Positions 31,001 to 59,184 of a stretch of DNA of 59,184 bases are shown here, one piece after another. Source of the stretch: Nanobdellota archaeon (GTDB lineage: Archaea; Nanobdellota; Nanobdellia; Parvarchaeales; Parvarchaeaceae); the NCBI GenBank assembly GCA_021794235.1, contig JAJYRE010000020.1, forward strand, positions 1 through 59,184, given 5' to 3'. The notes below the pieces were generated by a model. It searched no databases. It was not told where the DNA came from and was given only the letters and a program-made list of their open reading frames with translations. Each line of letters starts with the position of its first letter. Position 1 is the stretch's first letter. The translations under genes were made by a program, and so were the position numbers.

Positions 31001-31630
31001 AGGAACGGTGATCTGCTCAGTAAGAACGCGATTTTTTCCTCTATCACCCTGTACAAATGCAACACGACACTTGGCAAGTATATTCCTCTGAAGACAAACA
31101 GGACGTCCTACAACCTTACCTATGAGAGCTACAACGCGGCATCCTCTGGATTCTCTATGTACTACATGGGCTTTTCGTCCTACAGTGTGCCAAATGTGGT
31201 CTTCCAGGAAACCGGTCTTCCCGCGGACGAGATTTGGTCCATAAACTACAGCAATTCTACGGCATACAACTATTCTAATTCATCGATATCCTACCCGCTA
31301 TCCGATAAGACCAGCGGTTTCAATGTATACCCGATAAGCTTTACGGCGTTCGTGAACTCTATAAAGTGCGAGGTAACTTACAGTCCGGATCCGGCATCCG
31401 GTAATATCCCTCCTTCGAACACTTCGCAGTACATAGAGGTTCATTTTATAAAGAGCAGCTATTGCGCTACATCTCCGCCTACTGGACAGGCGCTTCCGCC
31501 GATATTCTATTCCAATGTGTTTGATCTTGAGATTGCGATACTTATTGCGGTCATTGTAATAGGCGCTATAGCGTTACGGGGATCCAAAAAGAGACGAGTC
31601 AGAAATTCTAACAGACGCAGGGGCCACTGA
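28061..31630 (+). CDS. large repeat-built surface glycoprotein candidate with C-terminal TM anchor
   Basis: 1189 aa. N-terminal signal/anchor, three tandem ~180-270-aa modules (LYLNG.../PGNFTYNGT...), about one NxS/T sequon every 10-15 aa, terminal TM (LEIAILIAVIVIGAIAL) and basic tail KKRRVRNSNRRRGH. Confidence 0.75.
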   Translation: MIKGSTSKFYFTVFLISFSAICILAAIFSFFPNLYSSFFNSAAMGNFRGVLTPFLVVGVCPQGTSGYLYSESGLPSGMTWKLVANGNTYSASAGSSITVCSSSSPSFTVPTLSQTSNCTKTTYTPSPSSGSGAATITYSSSQSSSAPVITLYLNGKSNSNNSITYGKTSLFNSTITCSAKVEISINGTVIAPLSTGSSNYSKVMSVGLYKVTAASNTSGVTNVTYYENITKAAPSISLTALPGNFTYNGTYENITGILTGNTGNVIAASMYINSAAFKTAAAGGTNGSAKITYLNSSVGTYTVIFNTSGNQNYTSASREVTAVVSQRPPTTSLYLNGVLNANSSIGYGTKSNFTANISNSSDFVGIYINGTLTVPLTKSKAVYTSVLNASVYKVTLFSNTSGVSNETFYQTVSRVINYLNLSASPGNFTYNGTDENITARLTTSLPGQQPLAGVYINGRSIGNTSTSLTYQNASGGTYLVVINYSGNQNYAPDSVTLTDIIAKASPSLSLTSSPNQNFTQNGTYLIYHIGISSVNSQLTAKLYINGSYKASTNSSNQYNISDAVGSFSGVLNTSGNRNYEPGSVNLSRTIYPNIPQEISLYINGAKDSNSSVTYGAKSSFTANLTRGTAYLGLILDGRVIIPLKNGTINYSVMLAASNYRVTVFTNDTSLNNVTYYQNIKKATPFLYLFTQPGNFTYNGTREIISGRISSLDNQLLGVLNVSDHFIPTVYSAVYSNASAGRYFAKFYTYGDDNYTAMSLNKSVVVLKGVIEQTLAAFPSDHYIYDSLPPTIQDTLTSVVYAGNNIVLHLYNDSVYTGLSAKPGQATTFNFSQLPSNYSVGGSYYYNVPSVSDENYTILQSNTLHVNITSRVNETIRLVNNSIANITISFIKDNRSLTINVSKILPSTGIVIPVRFGPISPLSSIVLSANKSAEFPYIKISEVSNESCSGTAPVNSLYNFTVLSPLDYNHTLNGVVYNFKLRNGDLLSKNAIFSSITLYKCNTTLGKYIPLKTNRTSYNLTYESYNAASSGFSMYYMGFSSYSVPNVVFQETGLPADEIWSINYSNSTAYNYSNSSISYPLSDKTSGFNVYPISFTAFVNSIKCEVTYSPDPASGNIPPSNTSQYIEVHFIKSSYCATSPPTGQALPPIFYSNVFDLEIAILIAVIVIGAIALRGSKKRRVRNSNRRRGH
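28787..28809 (+). repeat. 23-nt exact intragenic repeat, copy 1 (GGAAACTTTACATACAACGGGAC)
   Basis: Encodes GNFTYNGT. Identical at 29336..29358 and 30137..30159. Confidence 0.9.
29336..29358 (+). repeat. 23-nt exact intragenic repeat, copy 2
   Basis: Identical string to 28787..28809. Confidence 0.9.
30137..30159 (+). repeat. 23-nt exact intragenic repeat, copy 3
   Basis: Identical string to 28787..28809. Confidence 0.9.
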
Positions 31631-31679
31631 ACTTCCCAAAGGTATCGGATGGTGCCTTTTGCGAATACACTTATAAGTT

Positions 31680-32984
31680 ATGCAGTCCATTACTAATGAA
31701 TGTGCGAACTGTCAAAAAACATGTTTGCTTGCGCAGGTTTTGTTAGTCAGGTCGGTTTCTATGGGGGCTGACAGCAGTTATCTCGAATCCGTTCTGTTTG
31801 AGGGCAAGAAAGGCGGCGCTTCAAAATTATTAGACAGTCTGGACGGAATAGAATTGCGAATTTCCGAGATGGATGGCAAGAAACTGATCAGTTCCCAAAA
31901 ATATATTAGCCTTTTCCGCCGTAAGCGAACGGGCGTTCTGACAGATAAGATTTTAGAGAGGGGTCCTACCGATGACATATATGTGTGTGTTATGCCCAGG
32001 TCCAGGGCCGAGACGTATTACAGGGTAGAAAACGACAGGATAGTCCGGATGAAGGCGGATTTTGAACTTCCTTCATCTTATCGCCGCGCCGGGCCCTCAG
32101 TTAGGCAGATGGAACGGTTCCTTTCCGATGAACCGACTGAAAGACGTTTGAATCTGGACTTCGATAGAAGAAGGATGAGGCCTTCACCATTTAGTTCCAT
32201 GTACATCCAGTCGGTATCTACAATAGGGTTTTTTATTAGCAGTATAGGTCTTGAGAATTATCTTACACCGTCGTTGCTGACAGATAGTCTTACAGCGCTA
32301 CCTCTTATATTCGCGGATGTGCTGGCTTATGTCGGAATCAGTACATATGCACTGCCTTTGCTAACAAAATCTGTTAAGCAGAGCGCGGATAAGCTAAGAG
32401 AAAGCGCGAAATCCGCCGGCGTAAACTTCAAACGGATGTTTATAATGCCTTCCAGAGAGGAAAATGCCATGACGCTCCCGGATAATTCTATAATACTGAC
32501 ATCGGGAATAGTTGAAGCTCAGAGTCCGGAAGAACTTATGGGGACGATATTCCATGAGTTGGGGCACGTTAAGAAAAGGCACTTCGTAAAGAATATATCC
32601 ATAGCCGCGGGATATCTCTTAACGTCCTTAGTAGCCAGCTCAATTGCCGGTGCAACCACACAGACTCTTTTGCCGGCATTTATAGGCGCTACCGCCGCGT
32701 ATATCGCATCAATCCGCTCTGTACAGAGAAAATTTGAATACGATGCGGACAAGTTCGCGGATTTAAACGGATACGGTCATGGCCTGGTGTACGGTCTCGC
32801 AAAGATCACCGGAAAGCTGGACTTTTACAGGAAAGGCAGTCATCCCTCTACATACAATAGGATAAAAAAGCTTGGTTTTAGACCGGAAAATGTGATGTCC
32901 GATATCGGAATTCACAGGGAGGATGTGTCAGACAGAGTGGATATTGACATAACGACTGTGGAGGAAGGCCGGGATAATCAATAA
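31680..32984 (+). CDS. M48-family (HtpX/Ste24-like) zinc metallopeptidase with N-terminal extension
   Basis: HELGHVKKRH zinc motif, flanking TM segments, and downstream EYDADKFA (third ligand region). The start could be Met28 (31761). Confidence 0.7.
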   Translation: MQSITNECANCQKTCLLAQVLLVRSVSMGADSSYLESVLFEGKKGGASKLLDSLDGIELRISEMDGKKLISSQKYISLFRRKRTGVLTDKILERGPTDDIYVCVMPRSRAETYYRVENDRIVRMKADFELPSSYRRAGPSVRQMERFLSDEPTERRLNLDFDRRRMRPSPFSSMYIQSVSTIGFFISSIGLENYLTPSLLTDSLTALPLIFADVLAYVGISTYALPLLTKSVKQSADKLRESAKSAGVNFKRMFIMPSREENAMTLPDNSIILTSGIVEAQSPEELMGTIFHELGHVKKRHFVKNISIAAGYLLTSLVASSIAGATTQTLLPAFIGATAAYIASIRSVQRKFEYDADKFADLNGYGHGLVYGLAKITGKLDFYRKGSHPSTYNRIKKLGFRPENVMSDIGIHREDVSDRVDIDITTVEEGRDNQ

Positions 32985-33036
32985 AAGCTGTAATATCCCA
33001 TCATATTCTTATATACTAAAACGGCAATCTTAGGTT

Positions 33037-35718
33037 ATGGCTGTAGAAGGTACCATTATAGTTGCAAATCCCGGAACAGGGAAAACAACAGCTCTGGCCG
33101 AACGTGTTGTCGAGCTTCTAAAATCCGGCGTAAAGGAGGAGGATATCCTCTGCATAACATTCACGACGAAGGCAGCTGAGGAGATGCGCCAGAGAATAGA
33201 TTCTAAGATAAACGAAGCGGGTCTGACTGGAGCTAAACCCTACCTGATAAATGTACACACATTCCACAATTTTACATATGAGTATCTCCTCGAAACGAAA
33301 GGAGAGCACAGGATACTGTCCGAGAACCCCCTGCGCTACGCCGTATTCAAGAGTCTGGAGAAAAACAAAGTCTTCACATACGGAGAGGACTACATCGTGG
33401 GTGACATCCTTCCAAAAATAGTAAACGCGATCAGATATCTCAAAAGTTTCGGGATACTGCCGCCAAGCATAGAGTCCGAAAAATCGAAGAGGGAACTGGT
33501 GGATATATACAATAAGGAGGGGATAAAGAACGTCACGGAGGACGAGATACTGGCTCTTTTTGATTATTTTATAGAGGCGTTTAAGGACTACGAGTCTTTC
33601 AAACCGGCAAACTCTATCGACTATATAGATATGCTGCTGAATTTCGTGCAGAACTACGATGGCAGGATTATGCACTACAAGTACGTGCTCGTCGATGAGC
33701 TGCAGGATGTGAACAATCTGGAGGCAAAGATAGCCCTGGAGGTAGGTGACAACCTATTTCTGGTGGGCGACAGGAAACAGGCTATATTCGGCTTTCAAGG
33801 AGGTAGTATCGGCAACTTTAGAAAGTTCGAAGAACTGGATGGAATGAAGAAACTCAAGAAGGGGATAAATCACAGGAGTGCACAGGTGATACTGGACTAT
33901 GCGAAGGAGCACTTTCTGAAGAACAGCTCCGATCCAACGTATGAGGATGAACTGAGCATACTCAAAAGCAGCAAGGACATCAGCGGAGAAGTGTCCCTTA
34001 TCGTCTCAAAAAACCCGTTAAACGCCGCGGTGAAAAAGCTTTCAGCCATACCGGAAAACGAGAAATGTGCGGTGATAACCAGAACGAACAGTCAGCTGCT
34101 GGAGCTGTCAAAACTGCTCGATTCAAAAAACATAGAATACACAACAACCGTAAGTGCATCCGTTTCCGTAGACGCCAAAAAGAGCATAATAGCATTCTTG
34201 AAGGGGCTGCTTTACAGCGACAAGGACACCGTAATAAACGCGCTGTTCACCCCATTTTCCGGTATTTCCCTCAGAGAAGCCTTCGGAATATCAGAAAGAT
34301 TCCATGGAAACGGCAGGACCACAGAGCAGGTACTTGCAGAAGCCAAATCTTTCGCATCATTAAGGGAAAAAAGCTACGACTTTCCGTCAATTTTTGAGAT
34401 ATTCGATACGATTATAATGCCCATATCCGTAACTATTGGAAAAGACTACTTCGCGACTGCGTCCGCGCTGCTTAAAAACATAAAGGAGGCTTTTGACACC
34501 CTTCAGGAGCCTTCCAGGGATGACCTTTTCCTGTATCTTGGAATGACGGCAGACAACTATGAGTCGATGGGCAGAGAGAACAGGGTAACTCTGACGACAG
34601 TACACAAAGCCAAAGGACTGGAATTTGACGACGTAATCTATATCCCGAAGAAGATAGCCGAAAGTATAAGCATGATAGACGCGATAGTCTATGCGATAAT
34701 AAGGAGCACCACCGGCATAGACGCCAGGGAGGAGCTTTTGGAAGAGCACCTGCGTATCGATTTCGTATCTTTTACGAGAGCAAAGAAGAACCTTTACATA
34801 TGCACTTCCAGCGATCTCGAGAGCAGATACCTTCTGGAGAATACCAAAAAAGAGATAGTTAACGACGACACGGAGATAGCACCGGCGTCCGGAAAGTATA
34901 ATGAGGCGTATGCCATGTTTGTAAACGGGAGGTATGATGAGGCGAAGAAGGAACTTACATCATCGGATAGGTGGCTCCCGTATCTGATAGGTTCATACTT
35001 CAAAGGCATAAAAAAAGTCTCATACAGTGCCGCCGAAAGCTTTTCCAGGGACCCGTTCTCTTTTCTTGAGGCCAATATAATGAAGCTGTCCAATGAATCA
35101 GAAGCCATGGAACTCGGAACGTCGGTACACGCGATGGCCGAAGGCATGTTCAAAGGCTCTTTGGATGAGGAATCGATAGAGCCGGGCATGGGAGGATATC
35201 TCCGGAACATAAAAGAAATAGACAGACGGCTTTCCGCCATGGGGATGAAGGAAGTCGCCGCGGAGAGGAGAATAGAGCTGCCTTTGAAAAAAGTGTTCCC
35301 TTCAGTAAAAGAAGACATAATAACCGTTGCAAAAATAGACGCAGTTTACAGGTCTGAAGACGGCAAATATCTTCTACTCGATTACAAGACGGATAAAACG
35401 AACGATAGATCCAGCGAGCACAGAAGACAGCTGGCATTTTATAAAAAAGTGTTTGCAGTGGCAGACGGGATAGACGAGGAAAAGATAGAGGTAGCTCTCG
35501 GTTTCGTAGGCCTGAGAGGGAAAATAAACACAGAGAAACTCGATTCCGAGCTGGATCTGGCGCAGCCTAAGAAAAAACAGATAGATACGGTTGAGAGTCA
35601 TTTTTCCGGGTTTTTACAGTCAATATCCGAACCGGATTCCTTCATTGAAAGGCTGAAATCAAAGCCGATAAAGGGAAACCTGCTGTATGACAGGGTAGTG
35701 GCAGAACTGAACAGGTAG
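33037..35718 (+). CDS. UvrD/PcrA-type SF1 helicase fused to a C-terminal RecB-family PD-(D/E)XK nuclease
   Basis: Helicase motifs: VANPGTGKTT (I), ITFTTKAAEEM, VLVDELQDVN (II), LVGDRKQAIFGFQG (III), TTVHKAKGLEFDDV (V/VI region). C-terminal nuclease motifs: GTSVH, KIDAVY, LLDYKTDK, RRQLAFY. No Cys cluster. Confidence 0.85.
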   Translation: MAVEGTIIVANPGTGKTTALAERVVELLKSGVKEEDILCITFTTKAAEEMRQRIDSKINEAGLTGAKPYLINVHTFHNFTYEYLLETKGEHRILSENPLRYAVFKSLEKNKVFTYGEDYIVGDILPKIVNAIRYLKSFGILPPSIESEKSKRELVDIYNKEGIKNVTEDEILALFDYFIEAFKDYESFKPANSIDYIDMLLNFVQNYDGRIMHYKYVLVDELQDVNNLEAKIALEVGDNLFLVGDRKQAIFGFQGGSIGNFRKFEELDGMKKLKKGINHRSAQVILDYAKEHFLKNSSDPTYEDELSILKSSKDISGEVSLIVSKNPLNAAVKKLSAIPENEKCAVITRTNSQLLELSKLLDSKNIEYTTTVSASVSVDAKKSIIAFLKGLLYSDKDTVINALFTPFSGISLREAFGISERFHGNGRTTEQVLAEAKSFASLREKSYDFPSIFEIFDTIIMPISVTIGKDYFATASALLKNIKEAFDTLQEPSRDDLFLYLGMTADNYESMGRENRVTLTTVHKAKGLEFDDVIYIPKKIAESISMIDAIVYAIIRSTTGIDAREELLEEHLRIDFVSFTRAKKNLYICTSSDLESRYLLENTKKEIVNDDTEIAPASGKYNEAYAMFVNGRYDEAKKELTSSDRWLPYLIGSYFKGIKKVSYSAAESFSRDPFSFLEANIMKLSNESEAMELGTSVHAMAEGMFKGSLDEESIEPGMGGYLRNIKEIDRRLSAMGMKEVAAERRIELPLKKVFPSVKEDIITVAKIDAVYRSEDGKYLLLDYKTDKTNDRSSEHRRQLAFYKKVFAVADGIDEEKIEVALGFVGLRGKINTEKLDSELDLAQPKKKQIDTVESHFSGFLQSISEPDSFIERLKSKPIKGNLLYDRVVAELNR

Positions 35719-49767: not shown

Positions 49768-50754
49768 ATGAATATGTTTGAAAGAGCCAGGAACGGGTGG
49801 AGACTCGCTGCGCAGATAAGACGGATAATAATGTCCGACAAAAAGCTCTTCATATACCCGATTCTCATAGCACTTATAACACTGGTCGAGTTCGTAATCA
49901 TATTCGCCTCCGTTACGCTTATACCGGCCGGAGGAAACATAAACGTGGCCATCGGCAATATAAACGCCATGTCATCTACCAATTCTACCCTGGCTCCGGC
50001 CCAGTCGGGTTCGTCCACAGGAGCACCGTCCCAGACGTCCTCCGCTGAACTTACTACGGAGGGTTTTCTGGTGCTTGGTCTTTTCATATTTTATCTCATA
50101 TCCACGTTCACGACAATGTACCTTGTCATTGCTCTTCTGATATCCTTCAGGAGCTACATGAACGACAGGGACAAGATATCATTCGGTTCCGCCCTTAAAG
50201 CCACCAGACCGTACCTAAAGCAGATACTGGAATGGGCAGTATTCTACGCCATAGTCCTGCTTCTGATAAGGGTGCTGGAAGCCAGATTCAGGGGCATAGG
50301 AAGGCTGATAGTCGCCGGAATAGGCTCGTTCACCCTTGCTCTTGCTTCATTCTTTGCCGCGCAGATAATACTGGAGAAGAAGACCGGGCCTATAGCCACG
50401 GTCAAAGCGAGTTTCGATACGATAATACACCATTTCGGGGCGACTTTCGGCGGAGTGGCCTATTCCGATCTCTACGGGTTAATGTTTGCTGTCATTGGAA
50501 TCCTTGTGATAATAAGCGGGGTCGTTGCCTTCGCAGTGACCGGCAGCTTTATCACGCTTGCCATACCGGTCCTGGGGTTCGTGCTTCTTGTCTTCGGTAT
50601 CGTGATATCCTTCATGACGCTCTCTGTCTTCAAGCTCATCCTCTACGATTATACTAGTACAGGTTCCCTTCCGGACGGCTTCGACAAGAACATGGTTAAT
50701 ATGGCTATCAAGCAGAAAAAAGTGCGGAACAAGCAGATACAGGGCGAGTTATAG
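49768..50754 (+). CDS. polytopic membrane protein, unknown function
   Basis: 328 aa with about 6 TM spans. No family recognised. Confidence 0.6.
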   Translation: MNMFERARNGWRLAAQIRRIIMSDKKLFIYPILIALITLVEFVIIFASVTLIPAGGNINVAIGNINAMSSTNSTLAPAQSGSSTGAPSQTSSAELTTEGFLVLGLFIFYLISTFTTMYLVIALLISFRSYMNDRDKISFGSALKATRPYLKQILEWAVFYAIVLLLIRVLEARFRGIGRLIVAGIGSFTLALASFFAAQIILEKKTGPIATVKASFDTIIHHFGATFGGVAYSDLYGLMFAVIGILVIISGVVAFAVTGSFITLAIPVLGFVLLVFGIVISFMTLSVFKLILYDYTSTGSLPDGFDKNMVNMAIKQKKVRNKQIQGEL

Positions 50755-50973: not shown

Positions 50974-51828
50974 ATGAGGATAGAAATACCTACACTAGTA
51001 AAATGGGCAGGAGGGAAGAAGCAGCTACTTAACCAGTTTGATAAATTTTTCCCAAAAAAAATAGATAGATATATCGAACCGTTTCTTGGCGGCGGTGCAG
51101 TGGCATTCTACATAATAAAACGTTTCCATCCAAAAAATGTATTCTTATCCGATATAAATGAGGAACTGGTGAATGCGTATAAAGCAGTCCAACTTAATGT
51201 TCCTGAACTCATAGAAGCTTTGTCTTTATTAGCAAAAAAACACAGCAAAGAGTTCTATTATAAAATAAGGGCACAGGATCCACAAAAATTATCTGATGTA
51301 GATAGAGCTGCTAGACTTATCTATCTTAACAAAACTTGTTTCAACGGTCTTTATCGCGTTAATTCGGAGGGTAAGTTTAATGTACCTATTGGTGAGCACA
51401 AACATTTGCAGATAGTAGACACGAAAGATTTAATGGAGATAAATCATCTCCTAAAACATGCAATTATAAAAACTATGCCATTTGAGAAGGTATTAGACTT
51501 TGCTAAAAAGGGAGATTTTATTTATCTCGATCCTCCATATTATCCTTTGAAAGAAGGTAAAAGCTTTACTAAATACCACAAGGGAGACTTTTCAAAGATT
51601 GACCAGGAGAGACTAAAAAGTATATTTGACAAATTGACTAAACGCGGTTGCAAAGCTATGTTAAGTAATAGCGACGCTCCTTTTATTCGTGATTTGTACA
51701 AAGAGTACTCCATACAGATAGTACAAGCAAGAAGAATGATTAACTGTGATGCAACTAAACGTGGCAAAATAAATGAAGTTGTTGTAACAAACTATAAGCC
51801 AATCTATCAAAAAACACTCATCGATTAA
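50974..51828 (+). CDS. Dam-family (D12 class, alpha) N6-adenine DNA methyltransferase
   Basis: VKWAGGKKQLL, SAM motif EPFLGGGAV, NKTCFNGLYRVN, and catalytic IYLDPPY near the C-terminal third. Confidence 0.9.
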   Translation: MRIEIPTLVKWAGGKKQLLNQFDKFFPKKIDRYIEPFLGGGAVAFYIIKRFHPKNVFLSDINEELVNAYKAVQLNVPELIEALSLLAKKHSKEFYYKIRAQDPQKLSDVDRAARLIYLNKTCFNGLYRVNSEGKFNVPIGEHKHLQIVDTKDLMEINHLLKHAIIKTMPFEKVLDFAKKGDFIYLDPPYYPLKEGKSFTKYHKGDFSKIDQERLKSIFDKLTKRGCKAMLSNSDAPFIRDLYKEYSIQIVQARRMINCDATKRGKINEVVVTNYKPIYQKTLID

Positions 51829-52358
51829 CGACCATTATGTGTAGCGCTAGATACTATTGGAAAGATATCTTCCTTATTGTATAGTGCATTTAAGACTCCT
51901 TTGAACATAAACGCACCCTGATATCCATTTTTCTCTTCCATTGTCAATAACTCCATAACAGTCGCAAGAAATTCTACAGAATATTGACCATATGCATTTA
52001 ACTTTTTAAACCTCTTTAATTTCTTTTTAGTGGCAAAATGCAGTCTACATTCCCGCTGTTCTCTCTTGTTTCTAAAGGGTTTTATCTTATCATATGAATC
52101 TAGCAGGTATTTTATGAATTCTAGAGTAAGTTTTTTATTATGTTCCTTTTTTAACAGTAAATCTATAACCCAATGAATGTGTTTAGGGGTCCTAACCACA
52201 AAATCTCTTGTATTTCTATCCCTATACTTAATAACTATGTCTAGAGCCGGATTCTTACCACGATCGCCTTGAAAAATGCCGATTACCTCACCCTGTGCTA
52301 AATGAAACTCTTTGAAAGCGGAAATACGGGGTCTTCCTTTTGGCTTCCATTCCATCAA
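51825..52358 (-). CDS. hypothetical protein; candidate cognate restriction endonuclease of the Dam-like MTase
   Basis: 177-aa ORF convergent with the MTase, with 3' ends overlapping by 4 nt. It has the same low G+C as the MTase. I could identify no nuclease motif, so the functional call is purely positional. Confidence 0.35.
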   Translation of the reverse strand: MMEWKPKGRPRISAFKEFHLAQGEVIGIFQGDRGKNPALDIVIKYRDRNTRDFVVRTPKHIHWVIDLLLKKEHNKKLTLEFIKYLLDSYDKIKPFRNKREQRECRLHFATKKKLKRFKKLNAYGQYSVEFLATVMELLTMEEKNGYQGAFMFKGVLNALYNKEDIFPIVSSATHNGR

Positions 52359-52496
52359 AATAAATGGTATTTTAACTTTTAATATGCATAATTAGTAAAT
52401 AAGCTATTAAAATAGATACACTAACTTTTTGTTGGTATTGGTATCATTATTCAATCGTTCAAAAAAGCTTAAATTCTTCGATTTTATCATCATAAA

Positions 52497-53537
52497 ATGG
52501 GTGCAAATGGGGGTATTATAGGCATAGACTTTTTTTGCGGCGCTGGTGGATTAACACACGGACTATCAAAAGCTGGCATAGATGTAGTAAAAGGAATTGA
52601 TATAGATTCAACAGTAAAGGATACATATATAGGAAATAATCCTTGGGCGATATTCTTAAATAAGGATATAAGAAATCTTTCATCTGAGGAAGTTATGGGA
52701 GGTGTTGATATAGGGCAGAAAAAGCTCTTACTTGCAGGATGCGCACCTTGCCAGCCCTTTTCCTCGCAAAACAGATCTAATGGAAGAAATACGGATCAAA
52801 GACGATCGTTAATGATGGAATTTGCAAGATTTGTTAAACAATTAAAACCAGAATATATACTTGTTGAGAATGTACCTGGTTTTTCAAGAGATAGAAATCA
52901 TGAATCGTTTATAAGGACTATAAAAGAGCTCGGATACAAATTTGATGAAAATATCCTAAATGCTGCTGATTATGGAGTACCGCAGAAAAGACGCCGTTAC
53001 GTTATGCTTGCTTCAAAAACTATTGATATTAAACTACCAGATCCAGAATATGGATTTGGGGGGAAAAAATATCGTACCGTTAAAGATGCTATAGGAAAAT
53101 TTCCAAAAATTAATGCCGGCGAAACATCGATGAAATTAAAAAATCACACTGCAAGAAAACTTTCGAAAATAAACCTTGACAGGATAAGTAAGGTACCAAG
53201 AAATGGTGGGTCCAGAAATTCCTTTCCAAACCGACTAATATTAAAATGCCATGAAAGTCATTCAGGTCATTCGGATGTATATGGCAGGATGAGTTGGGAT
53301 AAACCAGCTCCTACATTAACATGTAAGTGCACGTGTCTTACAAATGGAAGATTCGGGCATCCAGAACAAAATAGGGCCATATCATTAAGAGAAGCTGCTG
53401 CGCTTCAAACATTTCCAGAGAGGTATATTTTCTACGGCAATATTAGCAATATAACTAAGCATATAGGAAACTCAGTACCAGTATTATTTGCGGAGAAATT
53501 AGGGTCGTATATAATAAAAACAGAAAATGGTAGATAA
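52497..53537 (+). CDS. dcm: DNA (cytosine-5)-methyltransferase
   Basis: Motif I IDFFCGAGGLTHG, motif IV GCAPCQPFS, motif VI ENVPGF, motif VIII QKRRRYVMLA, motif IX REAAALQTFP, motif X GNSVP. Confidence 0.92.
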   Translation: MGANGGIIGIDFFCGAGGLTHGLSKAGIDVVKGIDIDSTVKDTYIGNNPWAIFLNKDIRNLSSEEVMGGVDIGQKKLLLAGCAPCQPFSSQNRSNGRNTDQRRSLMMEFARFVKQLKPEYILVENVPGFSRDRNHESFIRTIKELGYKFDENILNAADYGVPQKRRRYVMLASKTIDIKLPDPEYGFGGKKYRTVKDAIGKFPKINAGETSMKLKNHTARKLSKINLDRISKVPRNGGSRNSFPNRLILKCHESHSGHSDVYGRMSWDKPAPTLTCKCTCLTNGRFGHPEQNRAISLREAAALQTFPERYIFYGNISNITKHIGNSVPVLFAEKLGSYIIKTENGR

Positions 53538-53892
53538 ACTAACTAAATCACAAAGAAGTTATAATATGTCCAGAATCAGATCCAGGGACACCTCAATTGA
53601 GGTTAAACTAAAACCGCTGATGAAAAGTCTAGGTTTTACTTACCATACAACAATATATGGTCACCCAGATTTCGCTAATAAAAAGCAAAAAATAGCCGTT
53701 TTTGTAGATGGATGTTTCTGGCACGGATGCAAAAAACATTACAAAACGCCAAAAAGCAATGTGACATTCTGGAAGACAAAGATAGCTGCAAATATTAAGA
53801 GGGACAGAATAGTAAATAATCGTCTTAAAAAAGAGGGGTGGCGCGTTATTCGGGTATGGGAACACAAAATCCGTAGTAATTTAAATAAATAG
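53527..53892 (+). CDS. vsr: very short patch repair endonuclease
   Basis: SQRSYNMSRIRSRDTSIEVKL, GHPDFANKKQKIAVFVDGCFWHGC, and GWRVIRVWEH. Overlaps dcm by 11 nt. Confidence 0.9.
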   Translation: MVDKLTKSQRSYNMSRIRSRDTSIEVKLKPLMKSLGFTYHTTIYGHPDFANKKQKIAVFVDGCFWHGCKKHYKTPKSNVTFWKTKIAANIKRDRIVNNRLKKEGWRVIRVWEHKIRSNLNK

Positions 53893-53907
53893 CTGCTATA
53901 GATTAAA

Positions 53908-55560
53908 ATGGAAAACAAAGATGAGTTAATAATGAGTTTTGATCCGAATACAATCCAACATTTAGGTATACACCTATACTCGACATTTCCACCAGTATTA
54001 TTGGAATTAATTGCAAACTCATACGATGCCGATGCTGAAAAGGTTTTGATTAAAATCGAGGAGGGGCCTAAAAAGACTGTCGTAATCCAGGATGATGGCG
54101 ATGGGATGACATTTGAGGAAATTAATGACAAATTCTTAAGGATAGGCAGAAATAGAAGAGAGGATGAAAGCAAGCAGAAAACTGCCAAGGGAAGGTTAAT
54201 TATTGGGAAAAAAGGACTAGGCAAACTATCTTTTTTTGGTATAGCAAAGAAGGTTACAATTTCTACAAGAAAAAATGGAAAAGAAAATAAATTTCTTATG
54301 ACATGGGACAGTATTAAAAATTCAAAAGACCGCGAATATCGCCCTAAAATACTAGATAAGGACAAGATTTGTTCAGAAAAAACAAATGGCACAACAATCA
54401 TCTTAAGTGATATAAAACGAGAAAGTCCATTTGATATTAACTCCTTGGCTGACAGTATCTCAAAATCTTTCTTATTTGATAAGGATTTTATGGTCATGAT
54501 TCAGCACGATAATGATGAGCCAGTTGTGATTACTAATGATAGAAAATATGAAAACATAGAAAAACAGATCTGCTGGAAGATACCTGAGGATGTAAAACTG
54601 GAATCTGATTATAAGAATAAAGAAAAAATATTGGGAGAAATAATAGCTACCAAACTGCCAATATCACCAAAATCTGAGATGCGTGGAATCACATTATTTT
54701 CCAGGAAAAAATTAGTAAATGTCCCTGAATATTTTTCAAGTAGCACATCTAGTCACTTTTTCTCTTATCTGACAGGCTGGTTACAGGTTGATTTTATTGA
54801 TGAGATTGAAGATGATGTAATATCTACAACTAGGCTATCTTTAAATTGGGAACAGGAAGATATGATTAGACTAAGAGAGTATTTGACACAATTAGTAGGG
54901 TGGCTACAGAATGATTGGAGAAAAAAAAGGGACGAAATTGGGAGAAAAGATATAGAGAAAAATACAGGTATAAACATTGATAACTGGTTTGAAAAAACAC
55001 CATTAGAAGTAAAGGAAAACTTAACCCCCATTGTACAAGCAATAATAAAAAATGAAGAGGTACCAGGTTATTCTAATAGTACAATAATACAAAAATTACA
55101 TTCGGTGTTACCTGAATATACGTACTATCACTATAGACATTTACATGAAGAGATAAAAGATGCCTCTGGGGGTGACTACAGAGATGGAGATTATTATAAT
55201 GCATTTAGTGAAGCGATCAAACGGTATATTAATACTGCAAAAACAAAAGCGAGTCCTATAAATGCTAAAAAAGATTTTGAAGCAATGGATATTATTTTTG
55301 GACCAGCAGCAAAATTGACTGTAATGAATGGTTATAAAAGGCGATCTGGAAATGAGTTTGATAGAGACACTAAGAAGAGTATAGAACTTGGTCAGAATCT
55401 GCTTTCCAAAGGTATTATTGAAGGGGGCAGAAATGGATTAAGCCATGAGGAAATAGAGGATATGAAAGTGTCTGGATTATTTACAGAAAAAGACTGTTTA
55501 GATATGTTGAGTGTAGTATCTCATCTTTTCAGAAGATTGGATGATGCAAAGTTAAGATGA
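53908..55560 (+). CDS. GHKL (Bergerat-fold, MORC/HSP90-like) ATPase fused to a C-terminal Ymh/TIGR02391-type domain
   Basis: N-box ELIANSYDADA, G1 box IQDDGDGM, G2 box GKKGLGKLSFFG, and a transducer-like middle region (RGITLFSRKKLV). The C-terminus (GDYYNAFSEAIKRYIN...GGRNGLSHEE...CLDMLSVVSHLFRRLDDA) matches the Hypoth_Ymh pattern as I remember it. Starts 15 nt after vsr. Confidence 0.8.
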   Translation: MENKDELIMSFDPNTIQHLGIHLYSTFPPVLLELIANSYDADAEKVLIKIEEGPKKTVVIQDDGDGMTFEEINDKFLRIGRNRREDESKQKTAKGRLIIGKKGLGKLSFFGIAKKVTISTRKNGKENKFLMTWDSIKNSKDREYRPKILDKDKICSEKTNGTTIILSDIKRESPFDINSLADSISKSFLFDKDFMVMIQHDNDEPVVITNDRKYENIEKQICWKIPEDVKLESDYKNKEKILGEIIATKLPISPKSEMRGITLFSRKKLVNVPEYFSSSTSSHFFSYLTGWLQVDFIDEIEDDVISTTRLSLNWEQEDMIRLREYLTQLVGWLQNDWRKKRDEIGRKDIEKNTGINIDNWFEKTPLEVKENLTPIVQAIIKNEEVPGYSNSTIIQKLHSVLPEYTYYHYRHLHEEIKDASGGDYRDGDYYNAFSEAIKRYINTAKTKASPINAKKDFEAMDIIFGPAAKLTVMNGYKRRSGNEFDRDTKKSIELGQNLLSKGIIEGGRNGLSHEEIEDMKVSGLFTEKDCLDMLSVVSHLFRRLDDAKLR

Positions 55561-55656
55561 GCATATCTATTAAAATTATTTCACAGGTTAAAGAAAGTAA
55601 GATTTACTATTTTTAGAACAATTTGAAAATTAGTGGCTCACTTTTAATTTAGTGTG

Positions 55657-55758
55657 AAATTAAATAATATTATAATTAGTATTATATAATATATAAAAAT
55701 AATCATATTTTTATATTCATTATAAATATAATTATTACAATAATAATATTATTATAAT
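55657..55758. other. ~100-nt almost pure A/T tract with palindromes, inside a 450-nt non-coding spacer
   Basis: I count only about 4 G/C in about 100 nt. Contains the 16-bp perfect palindrome ATAATAATATTATTAT (55740..55755). Just upstream is an 8-bp-stem hairpin, TTTAATTT-agtgtg-AAATTAAA (55643..55664). Confidence 0.6.
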
Positions 55759-56010
55759 CCGTGCTTTTATCTAACTTAAATTACTGTTTAAATAATTAAA
55801 ATATCATCTTTTTAACTCTTCCTGCTTTCCTACTCTTCACGGCCTAGAAGCGTCAAAGAAAGCTTCGACGTATTACACAGATCCATCAACAGGCACGAAG
55901 GACTTAGAGAAAAGTACCTGAAATAGTCTAATACAGATTAAATGAAAGCTATTTATAGTATAATACTTCATTTAATTCATTAAATAGTGATGAAAACAAT
56001 GGGGTAAAAT

Positions 56011-56640
56011 ATGTCTAATAAAAATAAACTAGAGGAGCAACTGGAGGATGTAAAAACATCAAAATCAGTATTGGATAAGTTACCGATAACCAAATCCGGA
56101 AAGAAAATAATCGGCTATATGAATGAAAATAACATTGAAGCGGCCAGAAAAGAGGCCAAGAGGGGATCAAAAATTACTGCGTGTGTATACGGCGCTATTG
56201 CATCCGCATCATACACCGCTGCAGGGCTAGGAGCTTACATGGTTAATAACCTGTCGCCAGACAAACTATATTCAGCACAGACTGGTTTTGGCTATGCCGT
56301 ACTTATTACTGTAGGGGGAGTCTCCGCGGTAATGGGCACTTATTTACTTAAGAATGAGCTGGAGACCTATTTTAAACCTGATGGATATATGAAATGGTTG
56401 AAAAATTCGTATGATTCAACCGTAAAACGACTAAAAAAGGACAACCAGCCACAAGCTTATACAAAGGACTGCGAAAAGGTTATGGGAAATATTAACGCTA
56501 TGAGTGAAGTAAAGCGGCTTAATAATATGAATAACTATGAAAATGTTGTAGGAGACATTAATGTTATAGGCGAGATAAAGCGACTTAATGCCGCAGAAAA
56601 TGAAAAACTCAGCAGTGAGCTTGAGAAGAGGTTGGATTGA
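56011..56640 (+). CDS. hypothetical membrane protein (2 Gly/Ala-rich TM), operon gene 1
   Basis: 209 aa. TM spans ITACVYGAIASASYTAAGLGAYMV and GFGYAVLITVGGVSAVMGTYLL. C-terminal short repeat: MGNINAMSEVKRLN / VGDINVIGEIKRLN. Confidence 0.55.
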   Translation: MSNKNKLEEQLEDVKTSKSVLDKLPITKSGKKIIGYMNENNIEAARKEAKRGSKITACVYGAIASASYTAAGLGAYMVNNLSPDKLYSAQTGFGYAVLITVGGVSAVMGTYLLKNELETYFKPDGYMKWLKNSYDSTVKRLKKDNQPQAYTKDCEKVMGNINAMSEVKRLNNMNNYENVVGDINVIGEIKRLNAAENEKLSSELEKRLD

Positions 56641-57098
56641 TGGTAAAATTCGATTTTAATTTGGAGCATCAGGACAAAGATACACAGAGTGAAATAAAAA
56701 AAGCCACACTCGAAGAGGTATTGATGTTCAATAAAATAGCTGACGCAGTAGTAAAGTACGGTAAATCCTATCCCATCTGCGGAGACAAACACTGCGATCC
56801 AAGCAATACTATAGGGTATGGCAGCGCACTACAAACATCAAAAAAGTTTCCCGATAATGGAGCGGTATTTGAAGTGAAGGGAAAATACACAAACAACGAA
56901 TCGCCGTATAATCTGGATAAGAACTATACTTTCAGCCTTGACGTGCGGGTTAAAAACTCGCCAGTTCTTCTGTATGAGCACAAGAAATCGGGAGAAGGAT
57001 ATGTTATGATAGAGAATCAAGGATCATGGAAAACAGCACTGAACACACTGAATCAGGAACTAACTGAATACGGGATGAGCGAAGTGCAGAATATATAG
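56637..57098 (+). CDS. hypothetical soluble protein, operon gene 2
   Basis: 153 aa. The start overlaps the gene 1 stop by 4 nt (ATGA). No family recognised. Confidence 0.55.
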   Translation: MMVKFDFNLEHQDKDTQSEIKKATLEEVLMFNKIADAVVKYGKSYPICGDKHCDPSNTIGYGSALQTSKKFPDNGAVFEVKGKYTNNESPYNLDKNYTFSLDVRVKNSPVLLYEHKKSGEGYVMIENQGSWKTALNTLNQELTEYGMSEVQNI

Positions 57099-57114
57099 AA
57101 TTTAAAGGAAATTT

Positions 57115-57771
57115 ATGAAAACACGTAAAAGTTTGGATAATTTTTTAGAAGCGCCTGTACAAAAGAAAGCCAAATTGGTCGGAACAAAGCATCTCGTTGG
57201 CGTTCTTGGTTTAAGCTCGGGAACCGCATTGACTGAAATCGATGTTCTGGACAGGTTGAATGACGTCAAAGCTGTAACTACGCCCACCTCTATTTCATAT
57301 ACGCCGGGCGGATACGATCTGCTGGGACAGCTAGCAAATAATCCTGTATATCACGATTTTTCGCATTTCCTTGTGACTACGGGCGTATCCGGAGGTCCTA
57401 ACAACACGTTGGGTATACTGGCGGCGGCCGCTTCCATGGTCGTTGGAGGATTGGCAGCAAGATCATATTTGAGAAGCGATAGACAGGAAGCTGAAACGGG
57501 GTATAAATCCGCCAAGGGCGCACTGTACAGCAAGGCGGCAGCGGCTGTTTCATTTTTGTCGGCGGGCATATATCTCGGCTCACAGTCATTCCTACCGGTT
57601 GTAAACGACGTACTCTACAAGGCACCTCTCTCCAGCATGGCTGAAGCGGCTATTGGAGGCGCTGCGCTGCTATCCAGTATATACACCGGATTAAGTTATT
57701 TAAGACAAAAACGTTTTGAAATAGCATATGAATCGTCACAAAAGACGACATTAGAGGATAATAAGGTATAA
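57115..57771 (+). CDS. hypothetical membrane protein (3 Gly/Ala-rich TM), operon gene 3
   Basis: 218 aa. TM spans LGILAAAASMVVGGLAA, AAAAVSFLSAGIYLG and AAIGGAALLSSIYTGL. Confidence 0.55.
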   Translation: MKTRKSLDNFLEAPVQKKAKLVGTKHLVGVLGLSSGTALTEIDVLDRLNDVKAVTTPTSISYTPGGYDLLGQLANNPVYHDFSHFLVTTGVSGGPNNTLGILAAAASMVVGGLAARSYLRSDRQEAETGYKSAKGALYSKAAAAVSFLSAGIYLGSQSFLPVVNDVLYKAPLSSMAEAAIGGAALLSSIYTGLSYLRQKRFEIAYESSQKTTLEDNKV

Positions 57772-57772
57772 A

Positions 57773-58303
57773 ATGGACGGCGATAAAAACTACAGAATAC
57801 CGAGAAAATTCGGCTTCGGCCTGGATGATCTGATAAGCAGCGGCATGTCAGAGTCCAGGAAGAGGGATTTTGAGATATTCAAGAGGGCCGAAATGATTGC
57901 AAATGATGATAATCTGGGGAAAGACAAGGACCTTTTTGCCTATATTGACGGAAGTTCTCCCACTTTCTCCGGCTCGGCTACATGTGATGACTTTGATATA
58001 AAGTACGTCCAGTATAGGGAGGGTATTCTGTCCAAACACTTAGCTATAGATCATCCCAGAGACGGCGTGGATATATTCAATGATAAAGAAACTGTCTGGC
58101 CATCCAGACTAGATATATATTATAAGGAAAAACCGATCTTCAGGGCAGAAAAATGTGACCTTTTTCATGGACCGGGAATAAGCAGAAAGGAAGTATATTT
58201 CAAGGTCGAATACGACGGTATGGACCCAGGTCTGAGAGCTAATCTATTGGAGAAGCTTACCGAAGGATCCAGGATAGCCAACTATCTGTTTTGGGGAAAG
58301 TAA
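57773..58303 (+). CDS. hypothetical soluble protein, operon gene 4
   Basis: 176 aa. Starts 1 nt after the gene 3 stop. Weak block similarity to gene 2 (LDVRVKNSPVLLYEHK/LDIYYKEKPIFRAEK; LNTLNQELTEYG/RANLLEKLTEGS). Confidence 0.55.
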   Translation: MDGDKNYRIPRKFGFGLDDLISSGMSESRKRDFEIFKRAEMIANDDNLGKDKDLFAYIDGSSPTFSGSATCDDFDIKYVQYREGILSKHLAIDHPRDGVDIFNDKETVWPSRLDIYYKEKPIFRAEKCDLFHGPGISRKEVYFKVEYDGMDPGLRANLLEKLTEGSRIANYLFWGK

Positions 58304-58352
58304 AGCCGTATGAACCGGGTTTATATATAAAGTAATCTCTAATAAGCAGGAT

Positions 58353-59184
58353 ATGACTACCAAAACTCTGGAAGAAAGGCTTAACATCGGTAAAAATAGA
58401 AATGAGCCTACCGTGAGTGTAATTCTGGCAACAAAGAACAGGCCAAAAAAGCTTGAAAAGTCCATAGAAAGCGTTCTCGGGCAGACTTACAGGGATTTCG
58501 AGCTCATAGTGGTTGACGGATCAGACAACGATTATAGCGCTAAGATAGTAAAAACCTTCGCGTCGCACGATCCCAGGGTAAAGTACATGGTAGACGGCGG
58601 CAACGGGCCCGCAGCAGCCAGGAACATAGGGCTGTACGGCTCAGGCGGCAGATACATAAATTTTCACGATGACGACATCATTATGAAACCCGACAAACTG
58701 GACGTTCTTGTCGACGGATTCGACGGCGAGAAAGAAGATACAGGGGTGGTATATTCCTCCCATATAGAAGTCTCCAAGAGAGGTACCCGTACCGTACCAA
58801 CCGCCTTAAAGAAGAGCTATTCGACGGATGCGGCTTATATACATAAAAAACTAACAAAAGGCTGCGTTGTCGATTCGAGCTCCGCGATGATCAAAAGAGA
58901 GTGTTTTGATAAGTCCGGCATGTTCGACGAGGACCTAAAAACGGCTGAAGACTGGGATATGTACCTGCGCATAGCCAGGAACTATAAATTCAAGTTCATT
59001 GACCGGCCCCTGTATACGTCGTATTTGGGCACGGATAACCTGCGTTTTGACATGACTAAATTTAAGGCGGCAAACAGGATTATAAGGGAAAAGACCGCTG
59101 ATTATATGAAAAACAGGGGAACCCTACAGTATCTAAAGTATAGGCTTTCAACATACTATGCTGCGGGAGCGTTCTACATTCTGT
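58353..59184 (+). CDS. family 2 glycosyltransferase (5' part; runs off the right edge)
   Basis: Not in the track because it is open-ended. My translation is MTTKTLEERLNIGKNRNEPTVSVILATKNRPKKLEKSIESVLGQTYRDFELIVVDGSDND...GPAAARNIGL...YINFHDDDD, the canonical GT2 N-terminal pattern. TATA ttatatataa lies 23 nt upstream. Confidence 0.85.
   Translation, partial: MTTKTLEERLNIGKNRNEPTVSVILATKNRPKKLEKSIESVLGQTYRDFELIVVDGSDNDYSAKIVKTFASHDPRVKYMVDGGNGPAAARNIGLYGSGGRYINFHDDDIIMKPDKLDVLVDGFDGEKEDTGVVYSSHIEVSKRGTRTVPTALKKSYSTDAAYIHKKLTKGCVVDSSSAMIKRECFDKSGMFDEDLKTAEDWDMYLRIARNYKFKFIDRPLYTSYLGTDNLRFDMTKFKAANRIIREKTADYMKNRGTLQYLKYRLSTYYAAGAFYIL

Follow-up and report, generated by a model that had tools for sequence, protein, structure and literature searches.

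A translationally coupled operon in a variable island of a DPANN archaeon, and the undescribed membrane-protein family of its third gene

The 59,184-nt stretch of DNA analyzed here (contig JAJYRE010000020.1, assembly GCA_021794235.1; hereafter the window), which is part of a 65-kb metagenome contig, carries four genes, g1 to g4. They make up a genuine operon with translational coupling, in which genes for membrane proteins alternate with genes for cytosolic ones. None of the four belongs to a recognizable family, and by sequence they are unrelated to anything described. The third gene, g3, represents an undescribed, DPANN-restricted family of membrane proteins, with members only in acidophilic Parvarchaeales-like metagenome-assembled genomes (MAGs) and metagenomes; the family is patchily distributed and sited in variable regions. 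By the same comparisons, g1, g2, and g4 are singletons or near-singletons at strain level. The reading placed first here, tentatively, is that g1 to g4 are a flexible-genome operon around a conserved g3 membrane module with swappable partners, possibly related to conflict. A lineage-specific membrane-plus-soluble operon in a variable DPANN island is of an unsurprising kind; the g3 family with its swappable partners would be the interesting part.

Layout, coding potential, and composition of the operon

The four open reading frames (ORFs) all lie on the forward strand, where a first-pass annotation of this DNA had placed them and where the ORF list bears them out: g1 at 56011–56640 (209 aa, a membrane hairpin protein), g2 at 56640–57098 (152 aa, soluble), g3 at 57115–57771 (218 aa, the family member), and g4 at 57773–58303 (176 aa, soluble and acidic). 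That annotation had given junctions of −4, +16, and +1 nt. The last two (g2/g3 and g3/g4) hold, while −4 for g1/g2 requires g2 to start at the TTG at 56637, yielding a protein of 153 aa. Because public gene calls start g2 at the ATG at 56640, and because the TTG-started protein is absent from the protein collection, the g1/g2 junction is most likely a 1-nt overlap (TGATG). With either start, the shared strand and the junctions (−1 or −4, +16, and +1 nt) are those of an operon, and the proposal of tight coupling and co-translation stands. Purine-rich GGAGG-like strings precede every start. The operon may be transcribed from an archaeal promoter at the TATA-like string TATTTATAGTATAAT (55950–55964), which lies some 50 nt ahead of the g1 ATG. 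Scans with sigma-70-type promoter models, which are not built for archaeal promoters, found no excess over shuffled sequence.

Coding potential was assessed with a codon-usage log-odds model trained on 21 long ORFs of the window, with all six frames scored per gene. The annotated frame was the best of six in all four genes (0.11–0.28, vs. −0.11 or less in the other frames), and the scores lay under the genome mean of 0.36 ± 0.09. Hydropathy confirmed the alternation of membrane (g1, g3) and soluble (g2, g4) products: hydrophobic segments number two in g1 and three in g3, which also has a weak one toward its N-terminus, and g2 and g4 lack them. Gly, Ala, and Ser make up 36–52% of the residues in the hydrophobic segments of g1 and g3, and about 50% in four of the five. 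The transmembrane (TM) helices had been described as glycine-zipper-like, which is accurate as regards small-xxx-small packing and inaccurate as regards true zipper strings, since [GAS]xxxGxxx[GAS] occurs only once in g3 and twice in g1; GxxxG occurs three times in g3 and not at all in g1. Neither protein matched the Gly-zipper families of Pfam.

In composition the operon departs from the rest of the genome. GC content at third codon positions (GC3) is 0.38, 0.43, 0.43, and 0.48 for g1, g2, g3, and g4, respectively, compared with a genome mean of 0.55 ± 0.04. The restriction-modification (R-M) genes that the first-pass annotation had noted beside the operon are indeed there, at 50974–55560 upstream of g1 with a 450-nt spacer between, and together with g1 to g4 they form one compositionally atypical, foreign-looking segment at 50974–58303.

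The g3 family and its genomic neighborhoods

When all four proteins were compared exhaustively with 1.84 billion cluster representatives by phmmer, g3 found five clusters, and a profile search extended these to 18 listed clusters including g3 itself, with E-values of 1e-41 to 1e-90 for its homologues in the 17 others. The family comprises about 20 clusters with 37–57% identity alignment-wide, all of MAG or metagenome origin, none of them named and none with a Pfam domain. In a 20-sequence alignment, nine columns are invariant and 32 nearly invariant. From its N-terminal end, which is basic, g3 is predicted to run through a weakly hydrophobic first helix (aa 26–45) and a conserved loop of about 50 aa with the motif LDRLND…TPTSVSYTPGG…NPxYH to three helices rich in small residues (aa 97–118, 137–160, and 174–196). 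Motifs of g3 include GISGGPNNTLGIL and GSQSFLPVVNDVLYKAP; in the alignment, KHLLGVLGLGSGTGL-E-DTLDRLNDV and GISGGPNNTLGILAAAAAL-IGGLAARSY stand beside the latter, and the conserved motifs LDRLND, GISGGPNNTLG, and GSQSFLPVVNDVLY mark g3 as a full-length member. Basic residues of g3 are concentrated in the N-terminus, in the loop at aa 119–136, and in the C-terminus, and these charge counts predict an N-in/C-in topology. The conserved Thr/Ser/Pro-rich loop would then face outward, and the small-residue faces of the helices may promote oligomerization.

The distribution of the family is narrow. Homologues of g3 occur in just three species representatives of GTDB, all of them MAGs labeled "Nanoarchaeota archaeon", and none was found in the Acidifodinimicrobium representatives of that database. 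A metagenome scan returned a single locus, already in the set. Nor did library searches yield a name. No family in Pfam, NCBIfam, PADLOC, or PHROGs matched any of g1 to g4, and PADLOC-DB 2.0, which covers Kiwa, Zorya, CBASS TM effectors, and retron effectors among others, returned no family at E ≤ 1. Searched over all 20 family members, Pfam gave no consistent weak family even at E ≤ 5, and sequence searches of the PDB with g1 to g4 gave nothing below E = 0.07. The TM effectors associated with CBASS/SMODS (Pfam S_2TM and S_4TM) matched neither g1 nor g3. Among holins and spanins, the best results were an Rz-like spanin for g3 (E = 0.2, PHROGs) and Phage_holin_10 in one of the 20 family members (E = 3.5). 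Pfam and NCBIfam detected no toxin or antitoxin domain of type II systems in any of the four. Foldseek matches of a g3 model against the PDB, led by the AhlB pore toxin and TolQ/ExbB, were disregarded as noise (E > 1, TM-score about 0.2).

Eleven other distinct g3 loci were read, and g1-, g2-, or g4-like neighbors were found in none. Because no g3 relative has such neighbors and the g4 homologue described below is not next to a g3-like gene, the four-gene unit is specific to this strain rather than a conserved system; with three of its four genes strain-level singletons, it should not be treated as one. Toxin-antitoxin (TA) or R-M genes lie within 7 kb of g3 in seven of 11 informative loci, the window included, a raw count over phylogenetically related loci. 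The window contributes its two R-M systems. An Mrr_cat fragment and a Polbeta/MNT-like nucleotidyltransferase lie near the g3 homologue of locus L093; PemK, VapBC, and three MNT/HepT pairs in L097; MNT/HepT, PemK, and TnpB in L100; HepT/MNT and a ParE-like protein in L103; an Eco57I-type R-M system and MNT/HepT in L104; and an MNT-like pair in L109.

The tightly coupled partners of g3 differ each time and are unrelated small proteins. In the window, g4 follows at +1 nt, whereas the partners elsewhere are a 161-aa HExxH protein at −4 nt (L093), 227-aa and 95-aa proteins at 11 and 6 nt (L100), and a 118-aa hairpin protein 12 nt away, just upstream (L110). Kinship of g1 with the 227-aa or the 118-aa protein, both upstream of g3 homologues, was considered and found not significant. 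In locus L097, a DUF6159 gene whose product is 82% identical to the copy in the window directly adjoins the g3 homologue, in opposite relative orientation; in the window the R-M islet and g1-g2 fill the space between the two, which marks the g3/DUF6159 site as a hot spot of rearrangement and insertion. The GC3 of the g3 homologue is below that of conserved neighbors in L095 and L097, and below that of most neighbors in L093.

Some of these loci have features of their own. In L093 (5491–8358), paralogous 148- and 150-aa proteins (LYRGVS…GLYLT..KHEA..YAH) bracket the g3 homologue, and two HExxH (metalloprotease-like) proteins come after it, the first overlapping it by 4 nt. In L109 (7001–8253), the first 27 codons of the g3 homologue recur at the head of the adjacent ORF, which continues as an MNT-like nucleotidyltransferase (GS.ARG…DIDLL); this looks like duplication and fusion of the 5′ end, or promoter capture. 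A family of soluble proteins of 160–280 aa, A4, with the strings KLY…LL…KGYID.QG.Y and Y.PG.WE.LL, turns up in three loci at no more than 4 kb from the g3 homologue (L095 6968–7459; L097 4668–5743 and L109 10322–11775, both on the reverse strand). Neither g2 nor g4 could be assigned to A4, with hhalign probabilities below 3%. For g4 there is nothing further; aa 105–139 of g2 resemble the A4 string LL..…KGYI..QG.YK..LN, a marginal and out-of-register match that nine of 5000 shuffles equaled (p about 0.002, uncorrected).

Strain-level genes and the duplicated-cassette model

The label "ORFans", which the first-pass annotation gave to all four genes, holds for g1 and g2 and nearly for g4, and fails for g3. 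In the phmmer search, g2 found only itself, as did g1 apart from one repeat-driven match. The g1 protein begins with a K-rich N-terminal tail (aa 1–54), continues with a two-helix hairpin (aa 55–78 and 92–113) whose turn is NNLSPDKLYSAQT, and ends in a 96-aa cytosolic tail. Within this tail, two diverged 22-aa repeats (aa 155–176 and 177–198; 56473–56604 in the window) follow the pattern E.V.G.IN.....(V/I)KRLN and resemble the 22-residue leucine-rich repeat (LRR). They account for the sole non-self match of g1, a 1206-aa LRR/TIR-like protein (P0012; E = 4e-7, summed over seven repeats). A solenoid-forming LRR protein would have an array of LxxLxLxxN-type repeats; g1 has just two repeats, and Pfam LRR models did not match.

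Relatives of g4 are a 98% strain variant and one homologue at 55% identity (P0006), and nothing else; a profile search left the family at two clusters, and no relative was found in the GTDB species representatives or on viral contigs. The alignment with P0006 has 96 invariant columns. Ahead of the P0006 gene lies a gene for an unrelated soluble protein instead of one like g3. A cluster of single-nucleotide polymorphisms (SNPs) lies in g4 at 58041–58057 on the forward strand, with seven SNPs in 17 nt that change aa 90–93 from LAID to STIE. Contig L004 has it, as do three metagenomes among those examined, and outside it no other difference from the window is listed across g1 to g4. The changes are not adenine-biased, and therefore not like those of diversity-generating retroelements; gene conversion or local diversifying selection is a possible source.

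In the first-pass annotation, g1-g2 and g3-g4 were seen as two copies of one membrane-plus-soluble cassette, and g2 and g4 were said to share weak ordered blocks. Such blocks can be read in the two sequences but do not rise above chance. Comparison of g2 with g4 gave E = 2.1 in BLASTP, a probability of 2% in hhalign, and z of 0.1–0.7 in local and global alignment (1000 shuffles), and an HMM of the g4 family scored g2 no better than it scored 300–404 of 3000 shuffles (p about 0.1). For g1 and g3, BLASTP gave E = 0.3 and shuffles gave z of 1.6–2.5; the 20-sequence g3 profile matched g1 in hhalign with a probability of 1.9% (P = 0.026), and when shuffles preserved hydropathy, 604–1444 of 3000 scored equally well (p 0.2–0.5). 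The duplication thus fails every similarity test, and the absence of detectable homology between the halves is what the annotation itself had named as grounds for giving it up. Two hints were noted and not promoted to evidence. A turn, D(K/V)LY(S/K)A…GYA, is found in the g1 hairpin, in the last g3 hairpin, and in the 118-aa protein upstream of the L110 homologue, and an N-terminal string, KFDFxL…IAD, is found in g2 and P0006 (BLASTP E = 0.33; BLOSUM45 z 3.7–3.8, for that pair alone). The comparisons point instead to g1, g2, and g4 as strain-specific additions around g3, not copies of one cassette.

The full model that came with the duplication was of two cassettes, each a membrane effector with a cytosolic sensor, acting beside the R-M genes in membrane-disrupting abortive infection. 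The alternation and the tight coupling agree with it, as, faintly, do the g1/g3 turn and the g2/P0006 string. Circumstantial backing comes from the atypical-GC3 segment that g1 to g4 share with the R-M genes and from the TA and R-M genes close to many g3 homologues. However, no g1/g3 or g2/g4 test is significant, the pairs are not kept (g3 homologues never have a g4-like neighbor, and the g4 homologue follows a soluble protein that is not g3), PADLOC, Pfam, and PHROGs give no match, and the frequency with which g3 stands alone is hard to square with a suicide pore that needs a sensor. Of the readings considered here, it is the least probable.

Possible roles and the surrounding island

A role in conflict, whether defense, immunity, or exclusion at the membrane, is preferred to housekeeping because g1 to g4 share a foreign-looking segment with two R-M systems, because g3 regions are rich in TA and R-M genes, and because the partners of g3 change. 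A constant membrane core whose coupled partners vary, sited in regions of this sort, is in general terms what conflict systems look like. Under such a reading, helix faces of Gly, Ala, and Ser would let g3 assemble into an oligomer in the membrane, its basic loop and tail being cytoplasmic. Whatever protein is translated next, g4 in this genome and unrelated small proteins in others, would dock there on the cytosolic side as a replaceable subunit for regulation or specificity, and g1 with g2 would be a second, unrelated membrane-plus-soluble pair in the same transcript. Topology, oligomerization, docking, and biological role are all predictions of this scheme. In its boldest form, which we regard as unlikely, the g3 family would be the constant membrane core of an unrecognized defense, exclusion, or host-interaction system of acidophilic DPANN archaea, with interchangeable coupled partners (g4, and the HExxH, 95-aa, and small hairpin proteins), and the window would hold two modules, g1-g2 and g3-g4, gained along with the two R-M systems.

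Several observations weigh against a conflict role. At six or more loci, g3 stands by itself, at least 100 nt from the gene on either side; it evidently works without a coupled partner, and such isolation is awkward for an unregulated pore-forming suicide effector. Proximity to TA genes is weak evidence, since MNT/HepT-type pairs are very common in these genomes and an enrichment of AbiE-type modules has been reported for DPANN archaea (PMC12988326); several of the g3 loci, moreover, come from related species and are not independent. No defense, toxin, holin, or channel family was recovered by libraries, PDB sequence search, or fold search, and viral contigs and phage and plasmid collections held no relatives. 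The AlphaFold2 model of g3 is all-helical with a pLDDT of only 59, and that of g4 (pLDDT 38) is unusable. Three metatranscriptome runs of the same study, in which the organism is at low abundance, contained no contig matching the window. Lastly, the three most distant loci have surface or glycosylation neighbors: the g3 homologue of L007 has a membrane-anchored YVTN-repeat protein on one side and a sequon-rich protein of 708 aa on the other, that of L009 is followed by a sequon-rich multi-TM protein, and that of L010 has a family-4 glycosyltransferase (GT4, Glycos_transf_4) 56 nt downstream.

These last neighbors favor the main rival, which is somewhat less probable than a conflict-related module: g3, and with it g1 to g4, as accessory envelope proteins of an ectosymbiotic DPANN cell, concerned with modification of surface glycans or proteins or with contact to a Thermoplasmatales host. 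The loop of about 50 aa is conserved and Thr/Ser/Pro-rich, as would suit an exposed segment. In the window, g4 is followed by a family-2 glycosyltransferase (GT2; 58353–59184, forward strand) and then, on the full contig, by a GNAT acetyltransferase (GC3 0.64); a GNAT gene recurs near the g3 homologues of L093, L097, and L104, and a GT2 lies 5 kb from that of L103. However, the GT2 gene of the window has a host-typical GC3 of 0.545 and a TATA-like string of its own, GGGTTTATATATAAAG, at 58317–58332, about 25 nt before its ATG, and is therefore probably a separate transcription unit outside the operon. No particular glycosyltransferase or GNAT gene recurs, and both kinds are common; g3 is missing from most related MAG species representatives, and no known glycosylation or pilus component matches g1 to g4.

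It is also conceivable, though improbable, that g1 and g2, and perhaps g4, are non-functional. They would have arisen recently or de novo, or be in decay, within an AT-rich island that was itself acquired recently, and selection would act on g3 only. The lack of any homologue of g1 and g2 among the 1.84 billion representatives is what such genes would show, as are the low GC3, coding scores of 0.17–0.28 against the genome mean, and the missing RNA contig. On the other hand, each gene scores clearly higher in its annotated frame than in the other five, and the stop/start overlap and the purine-rich motifs before the starts are typical of translated operon genes. ORFs of 152–209 aa are unlikely by chance in DNA of roughly 40% GC, and all four are intact in every metagenome holding them. 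For g4, the 55% homologue with its 96 invariant columns also argues for function. A conflict-related membrane module built on g3 is still ranked first, and tentatively so.

Comparison with known systems yields likenesses in architecture and none in sequence. Kiwa is a membrane-embedded supercomplex of the small membrane protein KwaA and its soluble partner KwaB (PMC11785009). It shares with the present operon a gene for a small multi-helix membrane protein beside one for a cytosolic partner, a setting in a variable or defense-type region, and the logic proposed here for g3/g4, that of a membrane oligomer with a docked soluble subunit. There is, however, no sequence kinship, as the PADLOC models of KwaA and KwaB gave no match at E ≤ 1; g4 (176 aa) and g2 (152 aa) lack any Pfam domain, g3 has no conserved partner, and a DPANN archaeon is the host. 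In RexAB of phage lambda, RexB is a four-TM channel and RexA a cytosolic sensor, and their action depolarizes the membrane. This pairing of a small polytopic membrane protein with a cytosolic activator is the architecture behind the abortive-infection model above, but g1 to g4 have no PHROGs or PADLOC match, prophage context, or viral relatives, and g3 is frequently without a partner.

Small-xxx-small spacing is associated with tight helix packing and oligomerization. Glycine-zipper proteins (of the Pfam Gly-zipper, Rick_17kDa_Anti, and transglycosylase-associated GlsB/YeaQ types) resemble g1 and g3 in this spacing and in helices that are about 50% Gly/Ala/Ser, and differ in that neither protein has a Pfam match at E ≤ 5, that zipper-like strings number one or two, and that g3 has its additional conserved loop of 50 aa. 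Immunity proteins to pore-forming bacteriocins and colicins have three to four TM helices and are often solitary in islands. Orphan members of this group are like g3 in being similarly sized, polytopic, alone in variable regions, and patchy, but they show no homology to it, and no toxin gene was identified nearby; we know of no bacteriocin- or colicin-type immunity system in DPANN archaea.

With the proposed gene duplication removed, what is gained is one new protein family, defined through its motifs, distribution, and contexts. Most small membrane proteins of DPANN archaea have no assigned role. If g3 is indeed a module with swappable partners, the few known immunity or exclusion systems that work at the membrane would gain an archaeal, DPANN-specific member, and the way in which ultra-small episymbionts protect or manage the one membrane they have would become easier to study. 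DPANN archaea have been reported to be poor in R-M and CRISPR systems and rich in unvalidated single-gene defense candidates (PMC12988326).

The host is taken to be a Parvarchaeales-like DPANN archaeon of acid mine drainage on the basis of its P-type H+-ATPase (68% identity to the enzymes of Ca. Acidifodinimicrobium and other Parvarchaeota MAGs), of other genes in the window, among them an archaeal TreH1-type trehalase and a CdvC/AAA-type ATPase, and of its occurrence at mine sites: sequences about 100% identical to the window come from mine-drainage and mine-tailings metagenomes and from nowhere else. According to published descriptions, archaea of this kind depend on hosts and have reduced genomes (PMC7779479, PMC10134863). 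Over its first 50 kb, the window has ordinary metabolic and housekeeping content, and the left edge of the island is marked by the conserved six-TM DUF6159 protein (49768–50754; GC3 0.61). This protein has a faint Pfam match to the SMODS-associated S_4TM family (E = 0.096), the only S_4TM match in the region.

The R-M islet that follows (GC3 0.25–0.34) contains two systems, as identified with Pfam, NCBIfam, and PADLOC. The first consists of a Dam-like N6-methyltransferase and a 177-aa ORF on the reverse strand (51825–52358), which has no family match and is convergent with the methyltransferase gene, overlapping its end by 4 nt; it may encode the cognate restriction enzyme or a controller. The second comprises a C5-methyltransferase, Vsr, and a restriction enzyme of the BbrUII/HgiDII family (53908–55560), in which a GHKL ATPase (E = 1e-67, below the equivalog cut-off) is joined to a C-terminal Hypoth_Ymh domain (TIGR02391). 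No convincing att-like direct repeats flank the islet, and an origin from a mobile element or provirus was rejected, there being no integrase, tRNA, or viral relatives. Between the restriction enzyme gene and g1, the spacer (55561–56010; 23.6% GC) contains an imperfect AT-only palindrome and tandem AT repeats at 55663–55753, where unrelated metagenome contigs pile up to a depth of about 340, presumably owing to low complexity.

Far upstream of the island, at 28061–35718, a 1189-aa protein without a family match, a 434-aa protein, and an 893-aa UvrD/PcrA-like helicase are encoded in a row. A PADLOC scan of the whole window, not split by ORF, returned GajB-type UvrD-helicase and RTasHel models, presumably from the 893-aa helicase, and the row may be a repair or defense module.

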